From: an uncultured bacterium
GTDB lineage: Bacteria > Patescibacteriota > Patescibacteriia > SG8-24 > DYFX01
Reading direction: 5' to 3'
NCBI GenBank assembly: GCA_937900255.1
Contig: CALCDZ010000004.1
Location: forward strand, 198,391-262,390
DNA length: 64,000 nt
Below the pieces are notes generated by a model. The model did not search any database. It had not been told where the DNA came from and saw only the letters and a list, made by a program, of their open reading frames with translations. Positions 15,250-64,000 of this stretch are shown one piece after another; within the stretch, counting starts at the first letter, position 1, and every line of letters begins with the position of its first letter. The translations under genes and the position numbers were made by a program.

Positions 15250-15280
15250 GGCTCGGGGTGCTACGCGGGCATTTTACCAC

Positions 15281-15479: not shown

Positions 15480-15496
15480 AAGATTGGTTCGCGTCC

Positions 15497-15545: not shown

Positions 15546-15556
15546 CGGTCCATCTT

Positions 15557-15754: not shown

Positions 15755-15755
15755 C

Positions 15756-16100: not shown

Positions 16101-16105
16101 GCCGT

Positions 16106-16660: not shown

Positions 16661-16662
16661 CC

Positions 16663-18182: not shown

Positions 18183-18191
18183 CGACTTCCA

Positions 18192-42439: not shown

Positions 42440-42515
42440 GCCGACGTAGCTCAGTTGGTAGAGCGTGTCCATGGTAAGGACAAGGTCACCGGTTCGATCC
42501 CGGTCGTCGGCTCCA
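42440..42515 (+). tRNA. tRNA-Thr (anticodon GGT)
   Basis: Cloverleaf GCCGACG / GCTC-AGTTGGTA-GAGC / TGTCC-ATGGTAA-GGACA / ACCGG-TTCGATC-CCGGT / CGTCGGC-T-CCA. U33 and A37 are present. Confidence 0.8.
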
Positions 42516-42599
42516 GGGCAGTTACTCAAGCGGTCAACGAGGGCAGACTGTAAATCTGCTGGCCTTGTGCCTTCCAAGGTTCGAATCCTTGACTGCCCA
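42516..42599 (+). tRNA. tRNA-Tyr (anticodon GTA), type II with a long variable arm
   Basis: GGGCAGT...GCAGA-CTGTAAA-TCTGC, a long variable arm, CAAGG-TTCGAAT-CCTTG, ACTGCCC-A. It directly abuts the preceding tRNA. Confidence 0.75.
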
Positions 42600-42605
42600 C
42601 CAGGC

Positions 42606-42681
42606 CACCTTAGCTCAGCCGGTAGAGCACCAGTTTTGTAAACTGGTTGTCCCGGGTTCAATCCCCGGAGGTGGCTCCAGC
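42606..42681 (+). tRNA. tRNA-Thr (anticodon TGT)
   Basis: GCCACCT / GCTC-AGCCGGTA-GAGC / CCAGT-TTTGTAA-ACTGG / CCGGG-TTCAATC-CCCGG / AGGTGGC-T-CCA. Confidence 0.8.
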
Positions 42682-42761
42682 GACGATCATCCAGGTCCGC
42701 AAGGGACTTGACGAAAAACCCGCCCAAGGGCATACTTGCCCAGTCAATTTCAACGAATACT

Positions 42762-42923
42762 ATGTCCCAGGACAACCTCATCAAGCTGGAGTGCACCGTG
42801 CTTGGGTGCAAGAACGCCAACTACCACTCGCACAAGAACAAGAAGAAGCTCAAGGTCCGCCTTGAGATGAGCAAGTATTGCAAGAACTGCAAGAAACACA
42901 CGGTCCACAAGGAGACCAAGTGA
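42762..42923 (+). CDS. rpmG: 50S ribosomal protein L33
   Basis: [53 protein letters not shown]. This is the L33 pattern with a zinc-ribbon CxxC...CxxC and the KNKK, RLEL, KYC and HKETK blocks. Confidence 0.8.
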
Positions 42924-42935
42924 GGATGCGATCTT

Positions 42936-42963
42936 GGCCGCCCGAAAGGGCGGTCTTGATTTT
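42936..42963 (+). terminator. Rho-independent terminator after rpmG
   Basis: GGCCGCCC-gaaa-GGGCGGTC followed by TTGATTTTCAC. Confidence 0.55.
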
Positions 42964-43763
42964 CACCTGAGAAGTTCGAATCGGTACCCGTGCTTCCGGA
43001 GCTTGGGAATCAGGACTTTGAGAGCCGCGCCGGTCGCCGGGGCGTTCGGTCCGCCGAGGTGCATGAGGATCACCCCGCCCGGGCGCGCCGCGGACATGAC
43101 GGAACGCGCGATCGCGTCAGGGTTCCGATTGAAGGCGTCTCCCGAGAAGACGCTGCCGTCGTCGATCCGCAGTCCTGCGGATGCGACGAGCGCGTCGTCA
43201 TGGGCAGAGCGGCAAAGGCCCGGGTAGCGGAAAAGGGTCGGGGCGCGACCGGTCAGGCCTTCCAGGATGCGCTGGGTCTTGGAGATCTCCTCGAGCTTGG
43301 CGGCGTCGGTGGAGACCGTCGGCAGCCCGTAGCAGGGACTCTCGAAGCCGGCGTGGTCGTAGCTGTGGTTGCCGAAAGCGTAGGACCCTTCGGACGCGAG
43401 CTTCCCGATCAGTTCTGGGTACGCTTCCGCGAACAGGCCGGTCACGAAGATGGTGGCCGGCACGCGCTCCGCGTCGAGCGTCTCGATGATGGAGGGATCA
43501 TACCAGGAAGCGACGCGGCCCGAGCGCAAGCGCTTCAGCATGCCGGGCGTCATGTCGGCATCAAAGGTGAGGTAGATCGGCCTGCCCTCCTCAGGCGTCC
43601 CCGTCGCCGCTGGACCGGCTTCGGGAGCCGTGGTCGCGGCGGGCGCAAGGCGGCGTGGGAGGGAAGCGGCCTTTTCCGGGCTGCCTGTCCGCACGCAACC
43701 TGCCCCGATCGACGCGATGAGGGAGACGGCCAGCAGCAGCTTCATTCCGGAATCGTTTTTCAT
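42963..43763 (-). CDS. Polysaccharide deacetylase (NodB/CE4) lipoprotein
   Basis: Lipobox LIASIGAGC. NodB motifs: TFDADM (TFDD-like), GNHSYDHAGF (H-S-x-x-H) and ILMHLG. The start is placed at MKNDSGMKLLL; the ORF is open to 43799. Confidence 0.7.
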   Translation of the reverse strand: MKNDSGMKLLLAVSLIASIGAGCVRTGSPEKAASLPRRLAPAATTAPEAGPAATGTPEEGRPIYLTFDADMTPGMLKRLRSGRVASWYDPSIIETLDAERVPATIFVTGLFAEAYPELIGKLASEGSYAFGNHSYDHAGFESPCYGLPTVSTDAAKLEEISKTQRILEGLTGRAPTLFRYPGLCRSAHDDALVASAGLRIDDGSVFSGDAFNRNPDAIARSVMSAARPGGVILMHLGGPNAPATGAALKVLIPKLRKHGYRFELLR

Positions 43764-43807
43764 GGCGGCAGTATAGCGGGACCCCCGTGTTCCCGTCACG
43801 TCCGGCC

Positions 43808-43836
43808 TTGCCAGGGGTGCGCCGCTGGGCTATCAT
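43808..43836 (+). promoter_or_regulatory. Promoter of tRNA-Trp
   Basis: TTGCCA (43808-13), 17-nt spacer, TATCAT (43831-36), about 28 nt upstream of the tRNA. Confidence 0.45.
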
Positions 43837-43864
43837 GCGTTCGTGCTTTCCGGCCGAAAAACAC

Positions 43865-43938
43865 GGGGGCGTGGTGAAATGGTATCACAAGGGTCTCCAA
43901 AACCCTTGTCGTGGGTTCGATTCCTACCGCCCCTGCCA
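43865..43938 (+). tRNA. tRNA-Trp (anticodon CCA)
   Basis: GGGGGCG / GTGA-AATGGTA-TCAC / AGGGT-CTCCAAA-ACCCT / GTGGG-TTCGATT-CCTAC / CGCCCCT-G-CCA. Confidence 0.8.
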
Positions 43939-50587: not shown

Positions 50588-53500
50588 ATGTTGAAACGGC
50601 TGCAACGGATCTTCTTGCGCATGTGGTTCGTGTCGCGCGTCATCGTGGCATACGTGCTGATCATGGCGCTGCCGATCGGAGCCCTGGCGGCCGCTCGGCA
50701 ATCGGATCTCGGATGGAGGGGTTCCATCGGTCTGGCGGTCGCGGTCTGGCCGTTCGTCATCCTTTCGTGGATGGCGATCCGTCTCCTCGGGAAAGCGCTG
50801 CGCTCTCTCTGGAGATACTGGCCGTTCCGGCTGGCGGCATGGTGCTGTTGGGGTTTCGCCGTTTACGAGCTGGCGGAATGGAATATCCGCACCTCGGAAG
50901 AGTACGCACTGTACGCCATCGCCGCCGAAGCGGTCGCCACCATGGCGCTCGGGTTCGCATCGTTCATCGATGCGCCCTCGGGAGCGGTGGAACGCTTCTT
51001 CATCCGGTTGCGGCTCCTGGTGCCGGAGAAGATGGATGTCGCCCTGCGCGTCTTGCACTGGGTGTCATGGCTTTCCTGCATCGCGCTCATCGACCGCTGG
51101 CTGTACCAGGCCGTCGACCGATGGCTCTGGAACAATTGGCTGACGATCCCGTGGGGACCGTTCCAGGCGTATCGCATCCCTCTCGCCAGCCTGCCGTCCG
51201 CGGCCTTCACGGTCGCGGCGATCCTGGCGCGTCCGCCCCAGTTCCGTCGGGGCCGTCCGCGCCGGGTCCTGCGCCTCAGGAAGGTGCCGATGGATCTCGG
51301 GGAATTCGGGTTCTGGATTTTCGGTCAGTGGGCGCTGTACGTGCTGGTGCGGGAACGTCTCTTCGTGCCGGAAACCCTTCCGGATGGCCGGAGGGTGGAG
51401 GCCGGCGAACGTTTCGCCTTCGGCCGCGCGTTCTGGACCGGAGCGGCGCTTGCGGTGCTGCTTTCGGTCTCGGTCGTTTCGGGCATGACGGAGCGTTTCG
51501 CCTCCGGATTGCCGGGAGACCTGTCCGCCGTCGAGAGATGGCAGCCGGTCGTCTCCACGAACGTCTACGACCGCACGGGTCAGCTGATGTGCGTCTTCAC
51601 GCTCGAAGACCGCAAATACGCGCCGCTCTCCGGGATCCCCAAGCATGTCCAGGCCGCTTTCACGGCGGCCGAGGACAAGGACTTCGATGGCCACTATGGC
51701 ATCGACGTGGCAGGTATCGTGCGCGCGGGAGTCATCAACGTCTCGAGCGGCCGTACGCGTCAAGGCGCCTCGACCATCACCCAGCAGGTCATCAAGCTGC
51801 TGGTCCTGAAGGATACGCGCAGGAGCTACACGCGGAAGCTCGCCGAGATCCTTCTGGCCGTAGAGCTCGAAAGGCGCATGACGCGCACGTACGGGCGGGA
51901 AGGGGCCAAGGACATGATCCGCGGCATCTACCTGAACTACGTCTACCTCGGCGGGAACGCCGCCGGCGTCGAAGCCGCCTCCCGGCGTTACTTCGACAAG
52001 GGCGTCAAGGATATCACGATCGCCGAAGCGGCGATGCTGGCCGGCCTTCCGAAGGCGCCGTCCCGGGATTCCCCCGAGACGCACTTCGATCGGGCCAAGG
52101 TGCGCCAGCGGTACGTGCTGGGCCGCATGTTCGAGCGCGGCGACATCAGCCGAGCCGAACGCGACGCCGCCTTGGCGGAAAAGATCGCCGTCGTCCATCG
52201 CATCTACCCGCTCAACGAGACCGCGGCGCCCTACGCCTGCGAACACGTCAGGAAGTGGGCGAAGGCGGCTTATGGCAACGACGCGATCTACAAGCATGGC
52301 TACGAGATCCGGACGACGTTCGATCTCGTCATGCAGCAGGAAGCTCAAAAAGCCGTCCGCTACGGACTGCTCGACCTCGAGCGCAGGATCGGATTCTCCG
52401 GTCCGGAGGGGCACGACGGGACTGCCGGCGAACGTTGCGACGCGCCTGCGGAAACGGTCATCGATGAGATGGTCGAAGCCAATGCGCGCGTCATCAGGCG
52501 CGCGGGCGAGAACGTCACGCTCTGCGTGCGCGGCAATGTCGTCCCGCTCGATCCCGAAGATGCCGCTCGCGTCATCAGGTGGGAGCGAGCCGACCATGGC
52601 CGCGCGCTCGCCGTCGGGGATCTGCTGACGGTCCGACTCGTGACCCGCATGGTCGCCAAAGGCGTCGCGAAGCGCTTCGCGCTGACCGCACGCCGCACCG
52701 GCGACCCGGATGCCGACGGCAAGGGCCGCGACGGGCGCCCCGTCAATCCGCTCCAGGCCGCTCTCGTGGCCATCGATCTGCCGAACGGAGAGGTGCGGGC
52801 GATCGTCGGAGGATACGATTGGCATGAGAGCCGGTTCGACTTCGCCACGCAGGCGCGGCGACAGGTCGGGTCGTCCGTCAAGCCGTATGTCTATGGGACA
52901 GGCTTGATGGCGCTGCCTGACTTGACCGTCCTCTCCCGCGTGCACGACGGTCCGATCTGCGTCTCGACGGCGACGGGGCAGTGGTGCCCGAAGAATTACA
53001 CCAACGGGCACATGCAGTCCTACTACGGCGATGTCGATCTGGGGACCGCCCTGGCGCTGTCGCTGAATTCCGTCTCCGTCCGCCTGGTCCTCAAGACCGG
53101 CATCGGTCCCGTCGTCGACACGATGAGGCGGCTCGGGATCCGGTCGAAGATCGTGCCGGTCTTTCCGTTGGCCGTCGGTACGCCCGAGCTCACGCTGCTC
53201 GAGCATGGCGCCGGCATCGCGTCGATCCTTTCCAATGGACGCGCGCTCACGAGCCAGACCGAGGACGGCGTACCGGGGCGTTTCATCGCGCGCGTGACGG
53301 AGCAGGTCGTCGGTCCCGACGGCAAGCTCGTTTCGCGCGTCGTGTATGCGCAACCGCCGCCGGACGAGGCGCAAGCCATGCCTTCAGGGGATGCCTACGC
53401 CGTGACCTACCTCATGAAGGGGGTCGTGGAGTCCGGTACGGGCGGGCTGGCCAAGACGCTGCTGCGGCCGTTCGCCGGCAAGACCGGGACGACCAACGAC

Positions 53501-53824
53501 TTCCGGGACGCCTGGTTCATGGGCGGTTCGGCGGACCTCGGCGTCTTCGTCCATGTCGGCCGCGATCGCCCGAACCGGATCGCGAACGAAGCGACCGGCG
53601 GCGCCATCGCGCTGCCGATCGCCGTCGCATTCATGCGGGCCGTCGCACCGGTCACGGAAGACGCGCCTGCAAGGGACTTCCCGATTCCCGATGACGTGAC
53701 GCTCGTCTATCGAGGCGAGCGCCGCGGGGGAGTGCCTGCGCTGATCCCGTTCCAACGGGGAAAGGTGCCGGCAAGCTACCTGCACGACCGCAAGCTCTCA
53801 TTCGGGAATGGACGCTTCGAATAG
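50588..53824 (+). CDS. Class A penicillin-binding protein (GT51 transglycosylase plus transpeptidase) with a long polytopic N-terminal extension
   Basis: GT51 motifs: EDKDFDGHYGID, RQGASTITQQ, RKLAEILLAVELE. Transpeptidase motifs: SSVKP (SxxK), SLN (SxN), KTGTT (KTG). The first 300 aa or so contain 5 to 6 hydrophobic helices before the canonical anchor helix. Confidence 0.8.
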   Translation: MLKRLQRIFLRMWFVSRVIVAYVLIMALPIGALAAARQSDLGWRGSIGLAVAVWPFVILSWMAIRLLGKALRSLWRYWPFRLAAWCCWGFAVYELAEWNIRTSEEYALYAIAAEAVATMALGFASFIDAPSGAVERFFIRLRLLVPEKMDVALRVLHWVSWLSCIALIDRWLYQAVDRWLWNNWLTIPWGPFQAYRIPLASLPSAAFTVAAILARPPQFRRGRPRRVLRLRKVPMDLGEFGFWIFGQWALYVLVRERLFVPETLPDGRRVEAGERFAFGRAFWTGAALAVLLSVSVVSGMTERFASGLPGDLSAVERWQPVVSTNVYDRTGQLMCVFTLEDRKYAPLSGIPKHVQAAFTAAEDKDFDGHYGIDVAGIVRAGVINVSSGRTRQGASTITQQVIKLLVLKDTRRSYTRKLAEILLAVELERRMTRTYGREGAKDMIRGIYLNYVYLGGNAAGVEAASRRYFDKGVKDITIAEAAMLAGLPKAPSRDSPETHFDRAKVRQRYVLGRMFERGDISRAERDAALAEKIAVVHRIYPLNETAAPYACEHVRKWAKAAYGNDAIYKHGYEIRTTFDLVMQQEAQKAVRYGLLDLERRIGFSGPEGHDGTAGERCDAPAETVIDEMVEANARVIRRAGENVTLCVRGNVVPLDPEDAARVIRWERADHGRALAVGDLLTVRLVTRMVAKGVAKRFALTARRTGDPDADGKGRDGRPVNPLQAALVAIDLPNGEVRAIVGGYDWHESRFDFATQARRQVGSSVKPYVYGTGLMALPDLTVLSRVHDGPICVSTATGQWCPKNYTNGHMQSYYGDVDLGTALALSLNSVSVRLVLKTGIGPVVDTMRRLGIRSKIVPVFPLAVGTPELTLLEHGAGIASILSNGRALTSQTEDGVPGRFIARVTEQVVGPDGKLVSRVVYAQPPPDEAQAMPSGDAYAVTYLMKGVVESGTGGLAKTLLRPFAGKTGTTNDFRDAWFMGGSADLGVFVHVGRDRPNRIANEATGGAIALPIAVAFMRAVAPVTEDAPARDFPIPDDVTLVYRGERRGGVPALIPFQRGKVPASYLHDRKLSFGNGRFE

Positions 53825-53856
53825 CCCTCCGACGCCTGTCGGGGGGCCTTTTCTTT
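53825..53856 (+). terminator. Rho-independent terminator
   Basis: CCCTCCGAC-gcct-GTCGGGGGG followed by CCTTTTCTTT. Confidence 0.6.
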
Positions 53857-53933
53857 ACCTTGACAAAAGCGTCTTTTCCTGGTAGCGTCGGATGTCCGGA
53901 AGTTCCTTATATCCACCAAAGAAAGGAGGACCC

Positions 53934-55004
53934 GTGCCCCGTTCACGCACCGATATATCCCTGGTACTCGCCGTCTTCGCGGTCGTGGCCGCTTGTACCG
54001 TGGCGGCCTCCCGCTACGGCCATCGCGCTCCGCCGTCGCACGTCTGTCCGCCTCCGGTGCGCAAGGCTCCGGTCGAATCCCGACGCGTGATCATCGTCAG
54101 CGTCGATGGCTTGTCAAGCGATCTCGCCCGCGCGATGCCGCATCTGATGCGGATGGCGGCCGACGGTGCCAGTACCCTCGCCGCATTGGTCCCGGCTGGT
54201 CACACGACCGCCATCTCGCACGCCGCGCTCTTCACCGGTGCTGATCCGTCGGTGAACGGCGTCGTCTGCGAACCGGATGAAGGCGTCTGCAAAGGGTTCC
54301 CGATGCCGCGACGTTCCGGGTTCCATAGCCCGACGTTCCGTTGGACGCCGCTCAAGGTCCACGAGACGCTGTTCACGGCCGTGGAAGGAGCGGGTTTCCG
54401 GGCGCTTGCCGCCGTCCAGAAGGGGAAGCTCGTCGGCCTGCTCCGCCCGAACGGCGATGAGACGGGCATCATCAGCGTCAACGATGCGGAAGAGGTCGTC
54501 CGGACCGGCTGCGACGCCGTGACGGACGGCCGCACGCGCCTCGAGGTGCTGCACTTCAAGATGATCGATGATGCCGGTCACCGTCGCGGCTGGCTCTCGA
54601 AGAGCCAGTACCGGCAAGCAGGCATCGTCGACGCGCAACTGCAGCGGATTCGCGATTGCATCGATGCCGCGAATCGCGTGCTCGGCGCCGTACAGACGGT
54701 GCTGATCGTGACCTCCGACCACGGCGGCACGCCTGGAGGCGGCCACTGCGGACGAGCGTTCGACAACGACGAGACGTGGCTCGTGCCATGGATCGCCGTC
54801 GGTCCCGGCATCAAGCGAGGATACGCCATCGCCCCGCGTTCCGGTCTCAAGCCGGCGAGGGGCGGGCGCGCTACGCCCGCGATGCTTCTCATCGACACCG
54901 CCCCCACTGTCCTTCGTCTGCTCGGCATCCCGGAAACGTCGATCAAGACGCTTTCGAAGGACGCCGTGCCGATCGAAGGCATCCTCAGTCCAGCGGCGCA
55001 GTGA
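53934..55004 (+). CDS. Alkaline-phosphatase-superfamily phosphodiesterase (nucleotide pyrophosphatase/phosphodiesterase-like)
   Basis: VIIVSVDGLSSD (metal-binding D), GHTTAISHAALFTG, and VTSDHGG near the C-terminus. N-terminal signal/anchor. Start placed at GTG 53934, 5 nt after the Shine-Dalgarno AAAGGAGGA; an in-frame ATG lies at 53892. Confidence 0.55.
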   Translation: MPRSRTDISLVLAVFAVVAACTVAASRYGHRAPPSHVCPPPVRKAPVESRRVIIVSVDGLSSDLARAMPHLMRMAADGASTLAALVPAGHTTAISHAALFTGADPSVNGVVCEPDEGVCKGFPMPRRSGFHSPTFRWTPLKVHETLFTAVEGAGFRALAAVQKGKLVGLLRPNGDETGIISVNDAEEVVRTGCDAVTDGRTRLEVLHFKMIDDAGHRRGWLSKSQYRQAGIVDAQLQRIRDCIDAANRVLGAVQTVLIVTSDHGGTPGGGHCGRAFDNDETWLVPWIAVGPGIKRGYAIAPRSGLKPARGGRATPAMLLIDTAPTVLRLLGIPETSIKTLSKDAVPIEGILSPAAQ

Positions 55005-55022
55005 CCCTGCCCCGCTTTTTTG
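54993..55022 (+). terminator. Imperfect hairpin plus T-tract
   Basis: GCGGCGC-agtgaccct-GCCCCGC followed by TTTTTTG. It is followed by a TATACT -10 box at 55024-29. Confidence 0.35.
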
Positions 55023-55074
55023 TTATACTGTCTTTCGAACGCAAGCCACCGCTGCGAAATGTCTCAAACGATCC

Positions 55075-55374
55075 ATGCTGCCGCTCCCGTCGCTCGATGA
55101 ACTCGACGCCCTGTTGTTCCTGGCCGAAGCAGGCGCCGAAGTGCCGGAGATCGACGTGCATGGCGAGCGGATCGATCAGGCGCTCATCGAGGCCGAACGC
55201 CTGGTGCAATCCTCCTTCATCAAAGGGGAACGGGTCCTGCGCCTGATCCACGGGAAAGGGGAGGGGCGTCTGCGCGATGCGTTGCATCGCTGGCTCGGGA
55301 CGCATCGGCTCGTCGCCCGTTATCAGGAAGCGGCCATGGGCGGCGCGACGCTGGTCGCGTTGGTCGAACGTTGA
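55075..55374 (+). CDS. Smr-domain protein
   Basis: EIDVHGERIDQALIEAERLVQ...LRLIHGKGEGRLRDALHRWL is the Smr pattern (LDLHG...IIHGKG). Confidence 0.55.
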   Translation: MLPLPSLDELDALLFLAEAGAEVPEIDVHGERIDQALIEAERLVQSSFIKGERVLRLIHGKGEGRLRDALHRWLGTHRLVARYQEAAMGGATLVALVER

Positions 55375-56729
55375 ACCATCCTAAAGATATGGCCGATCGC
55401 CATTTCCGGAAAGCCTGGGTCGTGACCGTCGACATGGGGTACGGGCATGAACGCGCGTCACATGCGCTGAACGATTTGGCGTACTCCGACGTCATCGTCG
55501 CCAATAATTACCCGGGCATCCCCGAGGCCGACAAGAGGCTTTGGAAAGAGAGCCGCATCCTGTATGAAGCCTTTTCGCGTTTCAAATCGGTGCCGATCGT
55601 CGGTCCGGTCGTCTGGGACGTCTTCGACAGCTTCCAGGAGATCAAGCCGTTCTATCCGCGCCGCGATCTCTCGAAGCCGAGCCTGCAGGTACTGCAGCTC
55701 TACCATCTCATCGAGAAGAAAGGGCTCGGACGCGACCTGATCGAGACGTTGCGCAACAAGCGCAAGCTCCCGCTCGTCTGCACGTTCTTCCTCCCGGCCT
55801 TCGCTGCCGACTATTTCGATTACCCCGAGGACATCTACCTCGTGACGACCGATGCGGACGTCAGCCGCGCCTGGGTCGCCAAGGATCCGAAGCGCAGCCG
55901 CATCAAGTATTTCGCTTCGAACGGGCGGGTGGTCGAGCGCCTCAAGCTCTACGGCGTGCCGCCTGAAAACATCTTCCTGACGGGGTTCCCGCTCTCGAAG
56001 GACCTGATCGGCGGAGCCGCCTACGGGACGATCAAGCGCGATCTCGGAGAGCGCATCTGCCACCTGGATCCGAACGCGGTCTTTTACGCGAAATACGAGG
56101 ACACCATCAGGAAAGAGATCGGAGCGATGAATTGCCGTCGCGAGCCGACTCATCCATTGACGCTGACGTTCAGCGTCGGCGGCGCCGGCGCGCAGCGCGA
56201 GCTCGGGCTCCAGATCGCGGAGAGCCTTCGGGAGAAGATCCGGAGCGGCAAGATCCTCCTGAATCTCGTGGCCGGCACCAAGAAGGATGCTGCCGCTTAT
56301 TTCAAGAGGGGCCTGATGGAGCTGGGACTCGGTTCGGACCTTGGGGAAGGGGTGCATATCCAATATTTTCCCGATCGCTCCAGCTATTTCCGGAAGTTCG
56401 ACCAGCTGGTGCGGCACTCGGACATCCTCTGGACCAAGCCGAGCGAACTTTCGTTCTACACCGGCATCGGACTGCCGATCATCGTCGCGCCGCCGATCGG
56501 ATCGCAGGAGAAGTTCAACGAGCTTTGGCTGCGCACGGTCGGCGGAGGCACGCCGCAGCACGACCCTCGTTACGCGGACGAGTGGCTGTTCGACTGGGTC
56601 GAATCCGGCGGGTTGGCCCGCATGGCCTGGAACGGGTTCATCGAGGCGCCCACGCACGGCGCCTATCGGATAGAGGAAATCATCACCGGATTGCCGGTCG
56701 AACTGGAAAAGCTTCCGCTCATCGTCTGA
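55371..56729 (+). CDS. Putative GT-B glycosyltransferase (MGDG-synthase/UgtP-like, GT28-related)
   Basis: N-terminal VVTVDMGYGHERASHAL resembles the glycine-rich start of GT28 enzymes. The C-terminal half could be read as a GT-B fold, but I see no clear motif. Weak call. Confidence 0.3.
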   Translation: MNHPKDMADRHFRKAWVVTVDMGYGHERASHALNDLAYSDVIVANNYPGIPEADKRLWKESRILYEAFSRFKSVPIVGPVVWDVFDSFQEIKPFYPRRDLSKPSLQVLQLYHLIEKKGLGRDLIETLRNKRKLPLVCTFFLPAFAADYFDYPEDIYLVTTDADVSRAWVAKDPKRSRIKYFASNGRVVERLKLYGVPPENIFLTGFPLSKDLIGGAAYGTIKRDLGERICHLDPNAVFYAKYEDTIRKEIGAMNCRREPTHPLTLTFSVGGAGAQRELGLQIAESLREKIRSGKILLNLVAGTKKDAAAYFKRGLMELGLGSDLGEGVHIQYFPDRSSYFRKFDQLVRHSDILWTKPSELSFYTGIGLPIIVAPPIGSQEKFNELWLRTVGGGTPQHDPRYADEWLFDWVESGGLARMAWNGFIEAPTHGAYRIEEIITGLPVELEKLPLIV

Positions 56730-56730
56730 C

Positions 56731-57714
56731 ATGGTCCTGCGCAAGCGCGTCATCGTCCTGGCACTCATCGCGCTGGTCATCGCCGGACTCGGCTTTTGGT
56801 ACGGGCGCGACGCGCTCAGGCGCGACCCGCGACCTGCCTATGGCGTGACGTTCTCGACCCAGTACGCACGCTCGTTGGGATTGGATTGGCGGAAGGCCTT
56901 TCTCGCGACGCTGGACGATCTCCGGGTGCGCAAGTTCCGCATCCCAGTCTATTGGGACGACGTGGAAGGCGAACGCGGAAACGTCGATTGGTCCGAGGTC
57001 GATTGGATGTTGGAGCAAGCCGCTTCGCGCAAGGCGGAGGTCATCTTGGCAGTCGGGCGCAAGACGCCGCGTTGGCCGGAGTGCCACGTCCCGGCCTGGG
57101 CCGAAAGGATGGACGAAACCGCGCAACGCAAGGAAGTCCTGCGTTTCCTGAAAGAGGAGATCGGCCATTTCAAGGGGGTGGCGACCGTAAAGGTATGGCA
57201 GGTCGAGAACGAACCGCTTTTCCAATTCGGGAAATGCCCGCCGCCTGACCGTGCCTTCCTCAAGCAGGAAATCGAAATGGTGCGGAGCCTGGATACGCGG
57301 CCCATCATGGTCACCGACAGCGGGGAGCTTTCGACTTGGATCCGCACCGGGACGCTGGGGGACATCCTGGGCATCAGCATGTATAGGCTGGTCTGGAACA
57401 AGTATCTCGGCGAGCTCTACTGGCCGCTCTCGCCGATTTATTACACCGATCGGATGAACCTGATCGGACCGGTGGTCAAGAAGGTGATCATCAGCGAATT
57501 GCAGGCCGAGCCCTGGTTCCGCAAGGCTCCTGACCGGACGCCGATCGACGAGCAGCTTTCCCAGATGGATGCCTCGCGCTTGCGCTCGAACGCCGATTTC
57601 GCCGCCTCTACCGGAGCCTCGGAGATTTATCTCTGGGGCGTCGAATGGTGGTTCTGGCTCAAGTCTCAAGGGCATGCCGAACTTTGGGAAGCCGCACGCG
57701 GGCTCTATACGTGA
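56731..57714 (+). CDS. Membrane-anchored TIM-barrel glycoside-hydrolase-like protein
   Basis: N-terminal TM. VKVWQVENEP (an NEP catalytic-acid motif typical of clan GH-A) and a later ISEL. Family undetermined. Confidence 0.35.
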   Translation: MVLRKRVIVLALIALVIAGLGFWYGRDALRRDPRPAYGVTFSTQYARSLGLDWRKAFLATLDDLRVRKFRIPVYWDDVEGERGNVDWSEVDWMLEQAASRKAEVILAVGRKTPRWPECHVPAWAERMDETAQRKEVLRFLKEEIGHFKGVATVKVWQVENEPLFQFGKCPPPDRAFLKQEIEMVRSLDTRPIMVTDSGELSTWIRTGTLGDILGISMYRLVWNKYLGELYWPLSPIYYTDRMNLIGPVVKKVIISELQAEPWFRKAPDRTPIDEQLSQMDASRLRSNADFAASTGASEIYLWGVEWWFWLKSQGHAELWEAARGLYT

Positions 57715-57726
57715 TACCATGTCCGC

Positions 57727-58866
57727 ATGGAGACGATGATCGGCCATGTCGCTCAGCCCGCGCGCTACAAGGATCTGTTCGAGCCGTTGCTCGACGCCGT
57801 CCCTTGCGCGCTCTTCTACGTGGATGCCGCAGGAGTCGTGCAGGCGGCCAACGGCCTTTTCGGCGTTTTTTTCGGCCTGGATCCCGTCGAGGCGGTCGGC
57901 CGCCCCGTCTCGTCGTTGGCCGATGCCTGGTCACGGGCGATGGCGGAACCGATGAGCTATCATGAGGTCGTCGCTCATCCTTTCGAGGAACGGTCTTCCG
58001 ATTTCGTCCGCGACGTCGAGGTCATCGCGCCGGAACATCGTTACCTTGAGGTCGCCAGTTCGCCGGTCCGCGGTTCCGGCGCGTATCTCGGCCGGCTTTG
58101 GACGATCCGAGACGTCACGCGCGACCGCGAGATCACGGAACTCAAGATCCGTTACGGCGGCCTGCGGAACGCCGACGAGATCAAGTCGAAGTTCCTGACG
58201 GTCGCTTCGCATCAGCTCCGGACGCCGATGAACTCGATGCGCTGGAACCTCGAGCTGATGCTTTCTGACGACAAGGCGATTTCCGCGCAGTCGCGCGGCA
58301 TGTTGCACGAGGTATATCAAAGCGTGCTTGCCGGACTCTCGATCATCGATGACATGCTGCTGGCGGTGGATATCGAGCAGCGGACGCTGCGGCTTGAAAA
58401 AGCCTCGGTCGACATCGCAGAAACGGTCAGCAAGGTCATCCGTGACCACGCGCGCAGCGCCTCGCTTCGTTCGGTGGCGCTGTCGCTCACGGTGGCGAAG
58501 GGATTGCCGCCGCTGTTCATCGACGGCGGGAAGATGGAAAAGGCCCTGGGAAGGTTGGTCGATAACGCCATCAGGTATACGCCGCCGGGAGGACACGTCG
58601 ACGTCGGGGTCTTTGCCGGTAAGGATGACGTCTCGGTTTCCATCCGGGATACGGGTATCGGCATCACCGAAGAGGACCAGGCGCGCCTTTTCGGACGCTT
58701 CTACCGTTCCGAACGCTCCATCAAGCTGAATCCCGACGCGTCGGGTCTCGGCCTGTATATCGCCAAATACATCATCGACGCGCACGATGGGAAGATCGGT
58801 TTCCGTTCAAAGGAGGGGAGAGGATCCACATTCACCGTCTCGTTGCCGCGTAGGGCGGCCAAATGA
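57727..58866 (+). CDS. Cytoplasmic PAS sensor histidine kinase
   Basis: PAS-like N-terminus. H-box ASHQLRTPMNSMRWNLELM, N-box LVDNAIRYT, and the G-boxes DTGIGI and GLGLYIAK. Confidence 0.75.
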   Translation: METMIGHVAQPARYKDLFEPLLDAVPCALFYVDAAGVVQAANGLFGVFFGLDPVEAVGRPVSSLADAWSRAMAEPMSYHEVVAHPFEERSSDFVRDVEVIAPEHRYLEVASSPVRGSGAYLGRLWTIRDVTRDREITELKIRYGGLRNADEIKSKFLTVASHQLRTPMNSMRWNLELMLSDDKAISAQSRGMLHEVYQSVLAGLSIIDDMLLAVDIEQRTLRLEKASVDIAETVSKVIRDHARSASLRSVALSLTVAKGLPPLFIDGGKMEKALGRLVDNAIRYTPPGGHVDVGVFAGKDDVSVSIRDTGIGITEEDQARLFGRFYRSERSIKLNPDASGLGLYIAKYIIDAHDGKIGFRSKEGRGSTFTVSLPRRAAK

Positions 58867-60002
58867 ATCCTATGCGAAAAGAAGATCGCGTGACATCGAG
58901 GTTCGGGCAGGGTTCCGAGGCGGCCGGTTGGGCGCTGGTCGCCGCCCTCCTCTCGTCCTCTTTCTTGCTGCCCGTGCCCGCGTTCCGTTGGCAGCAGGCG
59001 TGGCAATACGCCGTCATCGCCATGATGGGCGCCATGAACCTGCTGGCGCGCGGCGCAAGGATCGGGGCGGAAGACGGCCCATCGGCCTCCCGCCGGGAAG
59101 AGACGCTATCGGCCCTCATCGGCATCGGGATGATCGCGCTGCTGACTTCGTATCTGCTCGCGTCTCCCGCATCCGCGTCCCTCGCGCCGCTCTACCTGCT
59201 GCCGATCGCCGGCGCCGCGCTGACGTTGCGGGAGAGGGTCGTCATAGGCGAGGCGGCGGCTTCCGTCATCTCGCTGCTCTTGCTGCAGGCGGTCGAAGTC
59301 GGGCCCGGCCCGTTCTGGACGACGGGGTTCCTCGTCCGCGCGGGCGTCTTCTGCTGCGTTTCCGCCTGTCTGGCGGCCGCAGCGGGCTTGCTGCGTCGCG
59401 CATGGGTCGAGGCGGATGAGGCCGCTTCCGACCTTTCATTTCAGCTCAGCCATGTCCAGGCGCTCGGTGCGCTGGCGCGGCAAGGTGCGCTGTCATCGGA
59501 GCCGGACCGGCTGGCCGATCGCGCCGGTGAAATCGTCGCCCAGGCTGCCGGTGCCGACCGGCACGTCGTTTACCTGTGCGAAAACGGGCCGCGGGCGGGA
59601 TTCCGCCGCATCGGCGGATCCAAAGCCGATGGCCGTCAGGAGAGTGACTTCCTGGCCGCAGAAGCTGAAAAAGGCGTTCTCGGCGGCGTCCTCGAGACCG
59701 GCGTGCCGCGGGAAATCGACGGGCCTCCTGGGACCCAGCGCATGTTGGTGCTTCCGCTCGGCGACCGCCAAGCGCCGATCGGGGTCATTTGCCTGTTGAA
59801 CCAGGATGGCGGACGTTTTCCGGAGGATGCTCTTCCGCGATGCGAACGGCTGGTCGGTTTCACGTCGGATCTCCTGGCAGGGGCCTTGCGGCTCAGACGT
59901 ATCGGCGACGAGCGGCGGGAAGTCGAACGGATGGCGAGGTTGCTCGCTGGCCGTTCCGGAGGAAAGAAGAAAAAGGTCCCCAAGCCCGGAAGCGGCCTAT
60001 GA
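58863..60002 (+). CDS. Polytopic membrane protein with a C-terminal GAF-like domain
   Basis: Five to six TM helices, then a soluble domain that could be GAF-like (judged from its position and length). ATGA-type overlaps with both neighbouring kinase genes. Confidence 0.4.
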   Translation: MNPMRKEDRVTSRFGQGSEAAGWALVAALLSSSFLLPVPAFRWQQAWQYAVIAMMGAMNLLARGARIGAEDGPSASRREETLSALIGIGMIALLTSYLLASPASASLAPLYLLPIAGAALTLRERVVIGEAAASVISLLLLQAVEVGPGPFWTTGFLVRAGVFCCVSACLAAAAGLLRRAWVEADEAASDLSFQLSHVQALGALARQGALSSEPDRLADRAGEIVAQAAGADRHVVYLCENGPRAGFRRIGGSKADGRQESDFLAAEAEKGVLGGVLETGVPREIDGPPGTQRMLVLPLGDRQAPIGVICLLNQDGGRFPEDALPRCERLVGFTSDLLAGALRLRRIGDERREVERMARLLAGRSGGKKKKVPKPGSGL

Positions 60003-62506
60003 AGTTGCGCATGCGGATGGCGTGGTTCGAAATCGCCACCGGGTTCCTGACGCTCTTCGCCGCGGGCGTGGCGTTCACCGCGCCAGGAGGAGGGACGCCC
60101 GGCATCGCCGCTTCTTGGGCGGCGCGCATCGTCGCGACCGGACTCTTCTTAGCTTTTTGCGCGATCTTCCTTTCACATGGACTGGGGCGCTACCGGCTCG
60201 CCCGCGCCCTATGCTTTTCCTTTTTCTCCGCCGTCAGCATCGCTTGTTCCGCATGGTTCGCTTTCGGCGGGCGATATGAAACGGCGGTCTTGCAGGGGTT
60301 CCTGGGCGTGTGGTACGGAGCCGTCGCTTTTTTCCAATCGGCGTTTCCTTCGCCGGGAACCCATGAGGCTTCGCGTTTCCAGGCGCTCAACCTGTACGTC
60401 GCTCCCGCCTACGCCGCCCTGTCCGTGCTGCGGATGGGTCTCCATTCGCTCGTCTCCCTCTTCGGAGCCGGTTCGCTCATGTGCACTGCGTTCTTGCTGG
60501 TCTGGGCGGAGCTTCGCGGCAAGCCGCGGACGCGTACCATCGCCGCTTCCCTCGCGTCGGCGGCCGCGCTCATCGCCGCCATCGGCGACATGGTCGCTGG
60601 CTCCGATGAAAGGGCGACGGGCGCGCTTCTCGTCCTTTTTTCCGTCATGGCGATGTCGGTGGCCCGCCGGGAAGACTCGCCGGAATCTGCCGACGATCTG
60701 ACGGGCCTCACGCGACGTCAGCAGGAATTGCATGTCCAAGAAAGGGCGGCGGAGACGGCGCTCTGGGCCATCGTGGCCTCATCGGCGCTCTACGTGAATT
60801 TTATCGACCGTTTCGACGCCCGGCTTTATTTCGCCGCCGCGTTCCTTTTTGCCGCCGCGATGACGCTCGGGTTCAGGCTCAAATCAGCGAGGGATTTGGA
60901 TGAGCGGAAGTACCCGCCGATCCTTTCCCTGATCGTCCTCGCCTCGGTCCTGTTCATCTCGGCGACCGGAGGCGCGTCCGGCCCGTTCGTCTTCCTGGCC
61001 TATCTGGTGATTTACGTCGGCGCCGCCATCGCGGCTCCGGCCTGGTCGGTCGTCGCATCCGCGGCTTTCGCCGCCTATGTGATGCTGGAATTCCTCGCCT
61101 GGCGGCTTTCACCGGAAGCGGGAGCGGCCTCGTTGTCCGAAATAAGCCGTCATGCGGCGGAGGCCGTTTCCTGTTCAGCGACGCTCGTCCTGACGGGCTT
61201 CTATGCCGTCTGGACGAGGCGACGTCGCGCGAAGATCGAGCGATCGCTTCTCGACGCCAACCATCGGCTGGCGGAGGTCTTGAAGACCGCCGTGCATGAA
61301 CGCGAGCAATCGCGGAAGCAATCCGAGGAGCAGCGCCGCCTCAACGACGACCTGGTCAGGATGCGCTCCGCGCTCATGAACGTCCTGGAAGATGTCGAGG
61401 AGTCCAAACGACAGATCCAGCTGGACCGACGTCGTCAGACCGCGAGCCTCAACGCCCTCGGCGAGGGAGTCATCGCTGCGGAAAAGGACGGCAAGATCTT
61501 CCTCTGCAACCCTGCGGGAGCGCATCTTCTCGGCCTTGAACCGGAAGCGGTGATCGGGAAACCCTTCGACCAGACCATCCGTCTTTTCCTGGAAGACAGC
61601 GATGTCCTTCAGACCGCGGCATTCGAGGCGGCGTTCGCCGGACGCGGCGCGGAGCTCGGGAGGCGGTTGATGCTGTTGCGTTCGGATGGCCGGCGGCTCG
61701 CGGTCTCAGGCACCGTCGCTCCGTATTTCGACGAGACGAACCGGCTCTCCGGCATCGTGCTGGCGTTCCGCGACGTCACGCTCGAGCGGGACATCGACCG
61801 TCAGAAGTCGGATTTCATCTCGATCGCCTCCCATCAGCTGCGCACGCCCCTGTCGGCGCTGCGCTGGTTCCTGGACCTGCTGCTCGCGGGGGACGCGGGC
61901 CCGCTGCAACCGACCCAAAAGGAGTACCTGACGGACATGTCGGTCTCGACCGCTCGCATGATCAAGCTGGTCGGCGATCTGCTGGACGTCACGCGCATCG
62001 AATCCGGGCGATTGAAAGCCTCTCCTGAACGCGTGGAGGTCGCGGGATTCCTTGCGGGGCTGCTTCGCGAGTACGCGCCGCTCATCAAGTCGCGGGACAT
62101 CCGGTTCACGTCCGATATCGCGCCGGAAGCCCGGACGTTCCATGCCGATCCGAACCTCGTCTATCAGGCGATCTCCAACATCCTCTCGAATGCCGTCAAG
62201 TACACGCCCGATGGCGGGACCGTGACCCTTTCCGTGAGGGTCGTGGGTTCGGAATGCGTCTTCGCGGTCAGGGATACCGGCGTCGGCATCCCCAAAAACC
62301 AGCAATACCGCGTCTATGACAAGTTCTTCCGCGGGGAGAACGTCGTCGCCAAGGAAACGGTCGGGAGCGGCATCGGCCTGTACGTGACGCATCTCATCGT
62401 CGAGCTTTCCGGAGGCCGGACCTGGTTCGAATCGCGCGAAGGGAAGGGGACGGTCTTTTACGTGGCCTTGCCCGTCAAGCCGCCCGAAGGTACACTGGCA
62501 TCATAA
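59999..62506 (+). CDS. Large polytopic-membrane PAS sensor histidine kinase
   Basis: About 12 TM helices N-terminally, then a coiled-coil and PAS region (GEGVIAAEKDGKIFLCNPA). H-box ASHQLRTPLSALRWFLDLL, N-box ILSNAVKYTPDGG, and the G-boxes DTGVGI and GSGIGLYV. The track ORF from 59789 is an upstream extension. Confidence 0.75.
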   Translation: MKLRMRMAWFEIATGFLTLFAAGVAFTAPGGGTPGIAASWAARIVATGLFLAFCAIFLSHGLGRYRLARALCFSFFSAVSIACSAWFAFGGRYETAVLQGFLGVWYGAVAFFQSAFPSPGTHEASRFQALNLYVAPAYAALSVLRMGLHSLVSLFGAGSLMCTAFLLVWAELRGKPRTRTIAASLASAAALIAAIGDMVAGSDERATGALLVLFSVMAMSVARREDSPESADDLTGLTRRQQELHVQERAAETALWAIVASSALYVNFIDRFDARLYFAAAFLFAAAMTLGFRLKSARDLDERKYPPILSLIVLASVLFISATGGASGPFVFLAYLVIYVGAAIAAPAWSVVASAAFAAYVMLEFLAWRLSPEAGAASLSEISRHAAEAVSCSATLVLTGFYAVWTRRRRAKIERSLLDANHRLAEVLKTAVHEREQSRKQSEEQRRLNDDLVRMRSALMNVLEDVEESKRQIQLDRRRQTASLNALGEGVIAAEKDGKIFLCNPAGAHLLGLEPEAVIGKPFDQTIRLFLEDSDVLQTAAFEAAFAGRGAELGRRLMLLRSDGRRLAVSGTVAPYFDETNRLSGIVLAFRDVTLERDIDRQKSDFISIASHQLRTPLSALRWFLDLLLAGDAGPLQPTQKEYLTDMSVSTARMIKLVGDLLDVTRIESGRLKASPERVEVAGFLAGLLREYAPLIKSRDIRFTSDIAPEARTFHADPNLVYQAISNILSNAVKYTPDGGTVTLSVRVVGSECVFAVRDTGVGIPKNQQYRVYDKFFRGENVVAKETVGSGIGLYVTHLIVELSGGRTWFESREGKGTVFYVALPVKPPEGTLAS

Positions 62507-62523
62507 GTCACTGCGTTCCCGTC

Positions 62524-62898
62524 ATGGCAAAAACCATCCTGATCGTCGAAGACGAGCTGAGCATGCAGCGGGCCCTCAAGAGCAAGCTGGAACATGCGGG
62601 TTACGTCGTCCGTGCCGCCGTCGACGGCGAAGAGGCACTGGCGTCGTTGCGCGCCTCCAAGCCAGACCTGATGCTCCTGGACCTCATCATGCCGAAGATG
62701 GACGGGATCAGCGTGCTCCGCCAGGTCAAGTCCGACGAGGACCTGCGCGCGGTGCCCGTCGTGATCCTCACCAACCTGAGTTCCGGCGACAAGGTCGCCG
62801 AAGCGATGCAGCTCGGGACGTTCGATTTCCTTGTCAAGGCGAACTATTCGCTCGACGACGTCTTGAAGAAAGTCGTCGATCGCGTGGGTCAGCCGTGA
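62524..62898 (+). CDS. Stand-alone response-regulator receiver (CheY-like)
   Basis: ILIVEDE...LMLLDLIMPKMDGI...VVILT...K. The acidic pocket, phospho-Asp, T and K are all present. There is no output domain. Confidence 0.8.
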   Translation: MAKTILIVEDELSMQRALKSKLEHAGYVVRAAVDGEEALASLRASKPDLMLLDLIMPKMDGISVLRQVKSDEDLRAVPVVILTNLSSGDKVAEAMQLGTFDFLVKANYSLDDVLKKVVDRVGQP

Positions 62899-62911
62899 TC
62901 CACCGCTTGCT

Positions 62912-63295
62912 ATGCCGAAAAAAGCCCCCATCAAGATCCTGGTCGTCGAAGACGAGACGTTCCTCGTCAAGATCTATGCGGTGAAGCTGAAGAAGGAGGG
63001 GTTCGACGTGATGATCGCGAACGACGGAGAGGCGGCCGTCAGGTCGGCGGAAGAGTTCAAGCCCGACCTGATCCTCCTTGACCTGATCCTGCCCAAGATG
63101 AACGGATTCGAAGCGCTCGAGAAGATCCGCGCCGGCACCGTCAATCGCAAGACGCCCGTCATCGTGCTTTCGAACCTGGGGCAGGAAGAGGACATCAAGC
63201 GCGCCGCGGCCCTCGGCGCGGACGATTATCTCGTCAAGGCCAATTTCTCCATCCAGGACATCGTGGCCAAGATCCGTGAGACGCTCGATAAGTAA
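62912..63295 (+). CDS. Stand-alone response-regulator receiver (CheY-like)
   Basis: ILVVEDE...LILLDLILPKMNGF...VIVLSNLGQEED...K. Confidence 0.8.
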   Translation: MPKKAPIKILVVEDETFLVKIYAVKLKKEGFDVMIANDGEAAVRSAEEFKPDLILLDLILPKMNGFEALEKIRAGTVNRKTPVIVLSNLGQEEDIKRAAALGADDYLVKANFSIQDIVAKIRETLDK

Positions 63296-63332
63296 ACGCC
63301 GGCAGCCGGCGCCGTAAGGAAAGGGGGAGACC

Positions 63333-64000
63333 GTGACGATCCCGAACGAGAGATTGAGGCAAGCGTTAGCTGAACTGGAGCTGCTCCCGGCCGAAAGGCT
63401 TGAAGCCGCCTTTCAAGGCGCGACGGAACGGGGCGAGCCGTTGTCGGAGTATCTGGTCGAGCGCAACATCGTCACGGACGAGAACATGGGGCGATTGACG
63501 GCGGACGTCTACGGCCTGCCTTTCGTGAACCTGCGCAACGAGACCGTCGGCGAAGAGGTGCTCGGATTGCTGCCGGTCGAGATGGTCAAGCGCTCCTTGG
63601 TCTTCCCGTTCCGCAAGACGGCGACGGGGCTCGCGCTGGCGGTCAACGACCCGGACGACCTGGAAGCCATCGCGGCCGTCCGCAAGAAGGTCAACGACGT
63701 CCCGATCCAGCTGCATTTCGCCACGCGGGCCGACATCATCCTGGCGGCCGCGCGCTATCGCAAGGACATCCGGAACGTCTTCGAATCGATCGTCGCCGAT
63801 GCCGAGAGGCGACTCAGTGAAAAGCCGGACCTCTCGACGGACGAGGCGCTCAAGGAACTGCCGATCGTCGAGATCGTCGATACGCTCCTGCTGTACGCCT
63901 TCCAGTCTGACGCGTCCGACATGCATATCGAGCCGCGGGAGTCCGAAGCCTACGTCCGCTTCCGGATCGACGGCGTCATGCATGACGTCGTCCGTTATCC
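63333..64000 (+). CDS. Second type IV pilus/T2SS-type assembly ATPase (GspE/PilB family); the 3' end runs off the window
   Basis: GTG start 4 nt after the Shine-Dalgarno AAGGGGGAGA. The N-terminal GspE-N (MshEN-like) domain reads LLPAERLEAAFQGATERGEPLSEYLVERNIVTDENMGRLTADVYGLPFVNL..., continuing through IVEIVDTLLLYAFQSDASDMHIEPRESEAYVRFRIDGVMHDV. The ORF track lists only an antisense ORF here. Confidence 0.75.
   Translation, partial: MTIPNERLRQALAELELLPAERLEAAFQGATERGEPLSEYLVERNIVTDENMGRLTADVYGLPFVNLRNETVGEEVLGLLPVEMVKRSLVFPFRKTATGLALAVNDPDDLEAIAAVRKKVNDVPIQLHFATRADIILAAARYRKDIRNVFESIVADAERRLSEKPDLSTDEALKELPIVEIVDTLLLYAFQSDASDMHIEPRESEAYVRFRIDGVMHDVVRY

Follow-up and report, generated by a model that had tools for sequence, protein, structure and literature searches.

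A 64,000-nt stretch of DNA from an uncultured bacterium of the Patescibacteriota (assembly GCA_937900255.1, contig CALCDZ010000004.1, positions 198,391 to 262,390 of the forward strand; the whole stretch is called the window below) ends with five co-directional genes for two histidine kinases, a membrane GAF protein and two receiver-only proteins, followed by the first third of a gene for a PilB/GspE-class ATPase, pilB2. On balance, we favour reading the five genes as an orthodox two-component module, unrelated to chemotaxis systems, that belongs to this genome's second type IV pilus cluster and most likely regulates it. The kinase–receiver cassette is probably a so far undescribed switch controlling the attachment pili of Patescibacteria. 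The evidence comes from the domains and spacing of the genes, from the pilus genes that follow pilB2 and from the recurrence of the linkage in other Patescibacteria.

Two kinases, a membrane GAF protein and two stand-alone receivers precede pilB2

The features at the end of the window, assigned from the open reading frame (ORF) list, Pfam and hydropathy, were as follows.

57727 to 58866, plus strand: HK1, a soluble PAS-HisKA-HATPase_c histidine kinase of 379 aa (Pfam, ORF list)
58863 to 60002, plus strand: membrane GAF protein of 379 aa, about five transmembrane (TM) segments and then GAF, without an output domain (Pfam, hydropathy)
59999 to 62506, plus strand: HK2, a polytopic membrane histidine kinase of 835 aa (Pfam, hydropathy)
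62524 to 62898, plus strand: REC1, a stand-alone receiver of 124 aa (Pfam Response_reg 92 bits, no further domain)
62912 to 63295, plus strand: REC2, a stand-alone receiver of 127 aa (Pfam Response_reg 89.9 bits, no further domain)
63296 to 63332, plus strand: REC2–pilB2 spacer of 37 nt, with a 6-bp GC hairpin (63302–63316) without a U-tract and the Shine-Dalgarno sequence GGAAAGGGGGAG before the GTG
63333 to 64000, plus strand: 5′ third of pilB2 from its GTG start, 222 codons of a PilB/GspE-class extension-type ATPase (Pfam MshEN and the start of T2SSE)

The ORF coordinates and Pfam agreed on five co-directional genes and a truncated ATPase gene, as an earlier note on this DNA had read them. 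HK1 scored 92.6 bits for HATPase_c, 39.2 for HisKA and 35.1 for PAS_4 (also labelled PAS_4/PAS), and hydropathy gave no TM-helix-like hydrophobic segment; the gene call on contig L001, which is described below, starts HK1 9 nt later than 57727. The GAF domain of the membrane protein scored 26.1 bits against a cut-off of 22.4, and its gene is coupled to both kinase genes by ATGA, the 4-nt start/stop overlaps claimed between the first three genes being real junctions at 58863–58866 and 59999–60002. HK2 has its TM region in residues 1–430, followed by a coiled linker, PAS, HisKA (59.3 bits) and HATPase_c (88.2 bits). It had been called a 12-TM PAS kinase; the polytopic kinase stood, and the number of TM segments is approximate, about 12–14 by hydropathy. 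The H-box ASHQLRTP was read from the sequence of HK1 as well as HK2. The nearest NCBIfam models of HK2 were WalK, PnpS and PhoR, each below its cut-off, and no PilS model was among its best NCBIfam matches listed. A database search with the HK2 membrane domain retrieved no homologs.

Both CheY-like proteins lacked a DNA-binding output, as the note had stated, since Response_reg was the only domain in each. The phospho-switch residues read from the sequence were E9, D10, D53 (acceptor), T83, F102 and K105 in REC1 and E13, D14, D57 (acceptor), S87, Y106 and K109 in REC2, the latter set being invariant or nearly so among 19 orthologs. In the REC2 alignment A1, E13, D57, N88, L89, D94, G102 and K109 were invariant. 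The nearest solved relative of REC1 was PleD D1 and that of REC2 was Thermotoga RR468 (78.8 bits, joint best); overall, the two receivers were nearest to RR468, OmpR-family receivers and PleD-D1. The proposed PilG/PilH or CheY-type architecture thus held in one respect, as the receiver-only design implies a protein–protein output, and failed as a claim of sequence kinship to PilG/PilH.

In all, the window holds two kinases, two receivers and two T2SSE-family ATPases and no more. The scanned ORFs, which are most of those in the 64-kb window, contained no CheA, CheW, methyl-accepting chemotaxis protein (MCP), histidine phosphotransfer (Hpt) domain, CheR/CheB, PilT or secretin, and neither Hpt nor a fused receiver domain was found in HK1, the GAF protein, HK2 or these ORFs. 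CheA/CheW components were missing from the cluster and from the scanned ORFs alike, in agreement with the note, and a Chp-like chemosensory system was ruled out on the lack of CheA, CheW and MCP. A multistep phosphorelay was ruled out as well, there being no Hpt domain or hybrid kinase, and the term phosphorelay gives way to one or two orthodox HisKA kinases that would feed two stand-alone receivers. HK1, HK2, REC1 and REC2 have the domains and residues of an orthodox HisKA two-component system, and phosphotransfer among them is predicted.

The remaining gaps are 17 nt between HK2 and REC1, 13 nt between REC1 and REC2 and 37 nt between REC2 and pilB2. A terminator or promoter in this last spacer had been named as the finding that would separate the ATPase from the module; a scan of the plus strand found no consensus for either. 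The GC hairpin shows no more folding stability than shuffled sequence (z = 0.89) and is not kept in relatives, whose REC2–pilB spacers of 29–52 nt all carry GGAGG and a GTG start. An operon boundary between REC2 and pilB2 was ruled out by the lack of a plus-strand terminator or promoter and by the unremarkable, non-conserved hairpin, and the claim that the sensor module is joined to the ATPase gene stood, with its short gap, its Shine-Dalgarno sequence and no terminator. A promoter may lie inside the REC2 coding sequence.

The genes that follow pilB2 point to a type IV pilus

The note had asked what lies past position 64000. Through an exact protein match to REC2 we found contig L001, which is 99.99% identical to window positions 53458–64000 and extends 8.1 kb further. 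It carries the complete pilB2 gene and five more genes, in L001 coordinates:

9876 to 11570: PilB2 ATPase, 564 aa
11576 to 12784: PilC/GspF platform protein (PilC2), 402 aa, T2SSF 194 bits, two repeats
12802 to 13269: pilin-like minor pilin, 155 aa, leader GFTTLE, weakly GspH-like
13241 to 17434: giant pilin-like protein, 1397 aa, about 3.4–7.6 kb past the window end
17436 to 17960: N_methyl pilin, 174 aa, 21.3 bits against a cut-off of 21.2
17963 to 18424: pilin-like protein, 153 aa

Gaps across this stretch, from PilB2 to the last pilin, are all at most 17 nt, and the prepilin leaders GFTTLE, GQSTIE and GFTLVE were read from the sequence. Beyond the window end there were thus PilC2, three small pilin-like proteins and the 1397-aa giant. 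PilB2 has an N-terminal MshEN/N1 domain, the Walker A motif GPNGSGKTT and the tetracysteine CPRC...CALC (motifs read from sequence). In the close relatives L003 and L006, the cluster goes on with a 694–706-aa PilM-domain protein (PF11104, PilM_2 128 bits) and one or two N_methyl major pilins (33 bits); the L001 contig stops before the position where these genes lie. The last L001 gene (17963–18424) has a C-terminal half unlike its orthologs and is followed by apparent reverse-strand coding up to 18689, and this end of the contig (17963–18689) may contain a frameshift or an assembly join.

The giant pilin-like protein begins with a class III-type leader (G|QSTIE) and has nine W(N/D)GxxWS repeats with a period of about 39 aa. 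It had no Pfam match, and its orthologs occur in most PilB2-type clusters. The repeats suggest several β-propeller modules, and by analogy the protein is probably a tip adhesin like PilX2 or PilY1.

By its gene content, the cluster headed by the ATPase is that of a type IV pilus and not of a T2SS (type II secretion system), because it holds PilC, pilin-like genes and the giant pilin-like protein, because relatives add PilM and major pilins, and because there is no secretin. Neither the GspD secretin nor GspC/L/M was found in the scanned window ORFs or on L001. T2SS identity was dropped on the missing secretin, and of the pilus or T2SS/competence-type machine that the note had proposed, the type IV pilus was retained. 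Its suggestion of control over extension and retraction could be addressed only by half; no PilT was found on L001 or in the window, where the two T2SSE-family ORFs are both of PilB length, and PilT may be encoded elsewhere in the genome.

The window opens with the first of the two type IV pilus clusters, on the minus strand (1–5788):

1 to 415, minus strand: pilin-like ORF with leader HAFSLME, running off the window start
638 to 1189, minus strand: ORF of 183 aa
1740 to 2840, minus strand: PilM
2908 to 4002, minus strand: PilC1
4007 to 5788 (or from the ATG at 5728), minus strand: PilB1 ATPase, full-length, PilB/GspE class

PilB1 and PilB2, both full-length, share 40% identity over 572 aa, and the ATPase next to the receivers is distinct from the pilB near 4007, as had been claimed. 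No kinase or receiver adjoins the first cluster. Judged by these genes, the genome holds two pilus systems and the sensor module lies beside only one of them.

The linkage between kinase, receiver and pilB recurs across Patescibacteria

In a forward test, PilB2 served as the seed for 80 genome loci, whose genes were labelled with phmmer. The closest pilB2 loci were 70–77% identical. Among the 39 Patescibacteria loci with enough upstream sequence, 25 had a co-directional receiver-only gene at most 3.5 kb upstream of pilB, and 22 had a histidine kinase (HK) gene upstream. The background in these loci was seven receiver-only genes per 652 kb, or 0.04 per 3.5 kb, which sets 64% near pilB against 4%. 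Outside the phylum, among Bdellovibrionota and other phyla, no upstream receiver-only gene was found in any of 24 loci. Two related metagenome-assembled genomes (MAGs) titled 'uncultured Gammaproteobacteria' share identical synteny, and their labels look wrong.

Four close relatives (L003–L006) keep the order (HK1)-GAF-HK2-REC1-REC2-PilB2-PilC2-pilins. Orthologs of HK1 were found in L005 and L006, and HK1 is absent from L003; orthologs of the GAF protein were limited to L003, L005 and L006; REC1 orthologs were present in L003–L006 (202–206 bits); and the N-terminal membrane domain of HK2 was kept only in the same four. In more distant Patescibacteria, a kinase and a REC2-type receiver still lie directly upstream of pilB, and the receiver that adjoins pilB is of the REC2 type in most loci. 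Many other lineages have the order HK-REC(1–3 copies)-major pilin-210-aa membrane protein-PilB-PilC. In L012 and L015 the ATPase is of the PilB1 type, and HK-REC is upstream here too. The pilus-linked kinases are often 240-aa HisKA and HATPase cores without a sensor or membrane domain (L007–L011, L093, L112, L131; for example L007 8736–9464), and the pilus machine itself may control these cores.

Two further observations concern the genes around pilB. Between the genes for the major pilin and PilB, L013 and L016–L048 (for example L016 8845–9471) encode a conserved polytopic membrane protein of about 210 aa. It has no Pfam match and may be a prepilin peptidase that has diverged or else a new component of the pilus. 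At L050 (5668–7213), a clear PilB2-type locus, no HK or receiver gene lies upstream; their place is taken by two proteins without a Pfam match, one polytopic in the membrane (349 aa) and one soluble (148 aa), which may form an alternative input module.

The REC2 family is Patescibacteria-wide and carries the signature (I/V)LSNLGQExDxxR..LGAxDYLVK in β4-α4-β5. For a reverse test, a metagenome scan was seeded on this signature (six-sequence alignment A2) and gave 80 loci. Several pilus-embedded orders were recovered, namely PilB-HK-REC-PilC-pilins (L112, L131), PilB-REC-PilT-PilC (L110, L153) and pilA-REC-pilA-pilA-PilB (L134); HK-REC(-REC)-B-C-minor pilins and HK-REC(n)-pilA-X-B-C also keep the linkage. 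The GC content of the linkage-keeping loci ranges from 0.22 to 0.70, and L149, a contig of 36% GC, has HK-REC1-REC2-PilB-PilC-pilins-PilM, matching the order of the 64% GC window. The tie between HK/REC genes and pilB thus held across many Patescibacteria and in several gene orders. Linkage that survives many rearrangements is the usual signature of functional coupling.

Does the module serve the pilus?

The reverse test also spoke for a different view, in which the five genes are a general-purpose two-component system with another target, for example in envelope or nutrient sensing, and the proximity to pilB2 is inherited synteny without functional coupling. Several observations weigh in its favour and against pilus regulation. 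Of the 52 REC2-like loci with at least 1.5 kb of downstream sequence, 11 had pilus genes directly downstream and 41 did not. In about 30 loci the receivers form an HK-REC-REC cassette among housekeeping genes, in one well-sampled lineage among DNA-repair/replication-like genes; the neighbours, judged by reading representative sequences and not by a Pfam scan, resemble TsaE, 5′-3′ exonuclease, Fpg, HolA, S20, UvrB, RuvA and MurE. The REC2 receiver family is not exclusive to pili, and the idea of a family dedicated to pili was not upheld by the reverse scan and was softened to a frequent, repeated linkage. The forward test, too, had 14 of the 39 Patescibacteria pilB loci without an upstream receiver, its loci are MAGs and metagenome contigs with partly unreliable taxonomic labels, and the sensor parts (the PAS domain of HK1, the GAF protein and the HK2 membrane domain) are kept only in the four close relatives. 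The nearest models of the kinases (WalK, PnpS, PhoR) would also suit a general role. Finally, co-transcription of the module with pilB2 is read from gene spacing alone. Co-directionality in itself is weak evidence because the whole stretch from about position 44 kb up to the window end is a single co-directional array; such long arrays occur in Patescibacteria genomes, and the genes upstream of HK1 are likewise syntenic in the close relatives.

Inherited synteny fits less well with a linkage that outlasts rearrangement into at least five orders, including a receiver between pilB and pilC or pilT, with the enrichment over background and with the lack of upstream receivers outside the phylum. 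In a neighbour-joining tree, moreover, the non-pilus receivers reduced to two tight clades, the first and the second receiver of the one well-sampled lineage, and pilus-linked receivers filled the remainder; several of the non-pilus loci retain a short GspE-like ATPase 4–7 kb off on the opposite strand. We consider a general-purpose system with no tie to the pilus unlikely.

The lineage with the fixed HK-REC-REC housekeeping neighbourhood is of low GC (L084, L087, L092, L094, L095, L100, L109, L140, L148, L157 and others). Upstream it carries a 200-aa protein without a Pfam match (cluster c7), repeated in tandem from one to seven times, and the short GspE-like ATPase seen at several of its loci has 435 aa and lacks the N1 domain.

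A second alternative keeps the pilus as the output and moves control to the level of expression, as a functional analogue of PilS-PilR: the polytopic domain of HK2 would sense unassembled pilins, and the receivers would use a partner that binds DNA or RNA polymerase. The layout of HK2, many TM segments and then PAS-HisKA-HATPase, is PilS-like, and many loci have a receiver gene immediately before the gene for the major pilin. Neither receiver, however, has a DNA-binding or sigma-54 AAA+ domain, the cluster encodes no candidate partner, many of the pilus-linked kinases are the 240-aa sensor-less cores without a membrane domain, and the HK2 membrane domain is lineage-specific. Membership of the PilS-PilR family was ruled out for lack of an NtrC-type regulator, and control of expression was retained only as this functional rival, which we regard as quite improbable.

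A third alternative concerns the machine: in place of an adhesive or motility pilus, the module would control a pseudopilus for competence (DNA uptake) or a T2SS-like device for secretion. PilB2 scored marginally higher on GspE than on PilB (510.8 against 506.2 bits, both below the equivalog cut-offs, with PilT at 158 bits), and its PilB/GspE class is clear from these models, which score the two subtypes almost alike. The best model of PilC2 is GspF, and the first pilin-like gene is the weakly GspH-like one. A link to DNA uptake has been described for type IV pilus-type genes in Patescibacteria (PMC9938205). Against these points stand the best solved relatives of PilB2, which are the PilB proteins of Myxococcus, Geobacter and Thermus, the PilM and canonical major pilins in the relatives' cluster, the lack of a secretin and of GspC/L/M among the scanned window ORFs and on L001, and the giant protein, whose β-propeller-type repeats resemble the host-binding PilX2/PilY1 type of adhesin (PMC11623550). 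There is little chance, in our view, that the controlled machine is of the competence or T2SS type.

A proposed switch acting on the pilus motor

For regulation of the type IV pilus by the two-component module, we propose the following route. HK2, as the polytopic sensor, and the soluble HK1 would autophosphorylate on the histidine of ASHQLRTP, and the ATGA-coupled membrane GAF protein may tune the kinases as an accessory sensor. The phosphate would pass to D53 of REC1 and D57 of REC2. The receivers would then bind a partner, most likely the PilB2 motor or else PilC2 or PilM at the base, and this binding would switch assembly of the adhesive pilus on or off. The two receivers may divide the work, one being the effector and its partner an antagonist or a phosphate sink. 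Action through partner binding is suggested because the receivers have no output domain, and direct protein-level control is the simplest reading because, in addition, no Hpt or DNA-binding partner is encoded nearby. Co-transcription, the pairing of kinases with receivers, the binding target, the sign of regulation and the control of the pilus by the module itself are all steps that we infer. The output would plausibly be an adhesion pilus, because the giant with its propeller-type repeats parallels the host-binding PilX2 of Nanosynbacter lyticus TM7x.

The motif of MshEN domains that bind cyclic di-GMP (c-di-GMP) is RLGxx[LVI][LVI]xxG[LVI][LVI]xxxxLxxxLxxQ, present in two copies. By eye, the MshEN motifs of PilB2 are degenerate, with Gly positions lost, and control by c-di-GMP through this domain is unlikely.

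Receivers usually contact their targets through the β4-α4-β5 face. We also put forward, tentatively, a wider proposal, which we hold possible but less likely than not: the HisKA kinase and the 'SNLGQ' receiver would be an ancestral, phylum-wide component of type IV pilus operons, in the place that Pil-Chp, PilS-PilR and c-di-GMP control take in other bacteria. Once phosphorylated, the receiver would attach by this face directly to PilB or PilC and gate host-adhesion pili, the 240-aa cores would take the condition of the pilus machine as their input, and individual lineages would have added sensors (the 12–14-TM kinase, the GAF protein and the PAS kinase) that couple host or environmental cues to it.

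Comparison with known systems

In Pseudomonas, Xanthomonas and Acinetobacter, PilG and PilH are two CheY-like receivers that act post-translationally on type IV pilus motors, and the present module resembles them in having two stand-alone CheY-like receivers, which may be antagonistic. The Pil-Chp system around them relies on ChpA, a kinase of the CheA type that bears Hpt domains, together with CheW adaptors and an MCP. Unlike Pil-Chp, neither the cluster nor the scanned window ORFs showed any of these components, and the nearest relatives of the receivers here are not chemotaxis CheYs. PilS has six TM segments, and its partner PilR is a sigma-54 activator of the NtrC type. As with PilS, a kinase with a polytopic membrane part and then PAS-HisKA-HATPase is encoded beside pilus genes, but the receivers here lack an output domain and HK2 has about twelve to fourteen TM segments rather than six. 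A stand-alone receiver beside an orthodox HisKA kinase is also found in HK853-RR468 of Thermotoga maritima (PDB 3dge), where the similarity to REC2 is that of the generic receiver fold; no cellular target has, to our knowledge, been assigned to RR468, and it is not known from a pilus setting.

The closest parallel in logic is EmvR of Xanthomonas oryzae, a single-domain receiver in a branched two-component system with ColS that binds the extension ATPase PilB and alters its ATPase activity (PMC11973254). Both systems run from an orthodox HisKA kinase to a receiver without a DNA-binding output, with PilB binding only proposed in the present case. EmvR, however, is an orphan gene outside the pilus operons of a diderm proteobacterium that has Pil-Chp and PilSR as well, whereas the kinases and receivers here are encoded within the pilus cluster, where we saw no further regulator of pili; the likeness drawn here is one of logic. 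The tandem-receiver DrdR (PMC13507683) and PilG/PilH are further precedents for receivers that bind PilB and modulate its ATPase activity.

Within the Patescibacteria, the Saccharibacterium TM7x has two type IV pilus systems, T4P-1 and T4P-2, the second with its own PilB, PilC and PilM, and its PilX2 is a β-propeller-bearing pilin that mediates host binding (PMC11623550). The genome studied here likewise has two systems, PilB1/PilC1/PilM at 1740–5788 and the PilB2 cluster. Unlike PilX2, the giant protein here reaches 1397 aa, and its repeats are spread along most of it. The TM7x pilus study (PMC11623550) does not use the terms response regulator, histidine kinase or two-component.

Other features of the window

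The Pfam map, which covered most ORFs of the window, showed housekeeping and envelope genes, among them those for MraY, Lon, FtsW, MurG, XseA, L10, L7/L12, MreB, HolB, RRF, TIM, PBP1 and glycosyltransferases. Just upstream of HK1, a 327-aa protein (56731–57714) has weak GH10/GH42-like TIM-barrel matches; longer homologs lie near pilus loci in two distant Patescibacteria (L008 15016–16956 and L022 5334–7148, both on the minus strand), which may be a coincidence. Two predicted β-propeller proteins were seen, a Kelch-repeat protein of 352 aa (17124–18182) and a BNR/sortilin/Ycf48-like protein of 358 aa (36448–37524) with an N-terminal hydrophobic region that by eye is a putative signal peptide; the repeats of the giant pilin-like protein had no BLASTP match to either. 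A 482-aa protein (12981–14429) combines a Cas4/RecB-like nuclease region with a helix-hairpin-helix and an RNase_H_2-superfamily domain. A packed tRNA cluster at 42440–43938 contains Thr(GGT), Tyr(GTA) and Thr(TGT) genes 0–1 nt apart, followed by ribosomal protein L33 (42708–42923) and tRNA-Trp (43865–43938). The window has 61–66% GC throughout and its closest relatives have 64–68%. Patescibacteria are mostly of low GC, and the GC content of the window is unusually high for the phylum.

Significance

Patescibacteria (also known as CPR, the candidate phyla radiation) account for a sizeable part of bacterial diversity. The members in culture are all episymbionts, and they depend on type IV pili to attach to hosts, to move and to compete (PMC11623550, PMC9894109). 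Full-text searches found no literature that ties two-component genes to Patescibacteria pilus loci or deals with pilus regulation there. What is new here is an orthodox kinase–receiver cassette embedded in pilus operons across the phylum; such kinase-to-receiver control of pili is known elsewhere. If the coupling were not functional, the locus would amount to an ordinary two-component system beside an ordinary pilus cluster. The receiver family with its conserved surface motif offers a defined set for motor-binding tests, and the three sensor proteins of this genome could have host-derived cues as their ligands. The cassette offers a concrete candidate, open to experiment, for how an ultra-small cell chooses the moment to extend its attachment pilus.

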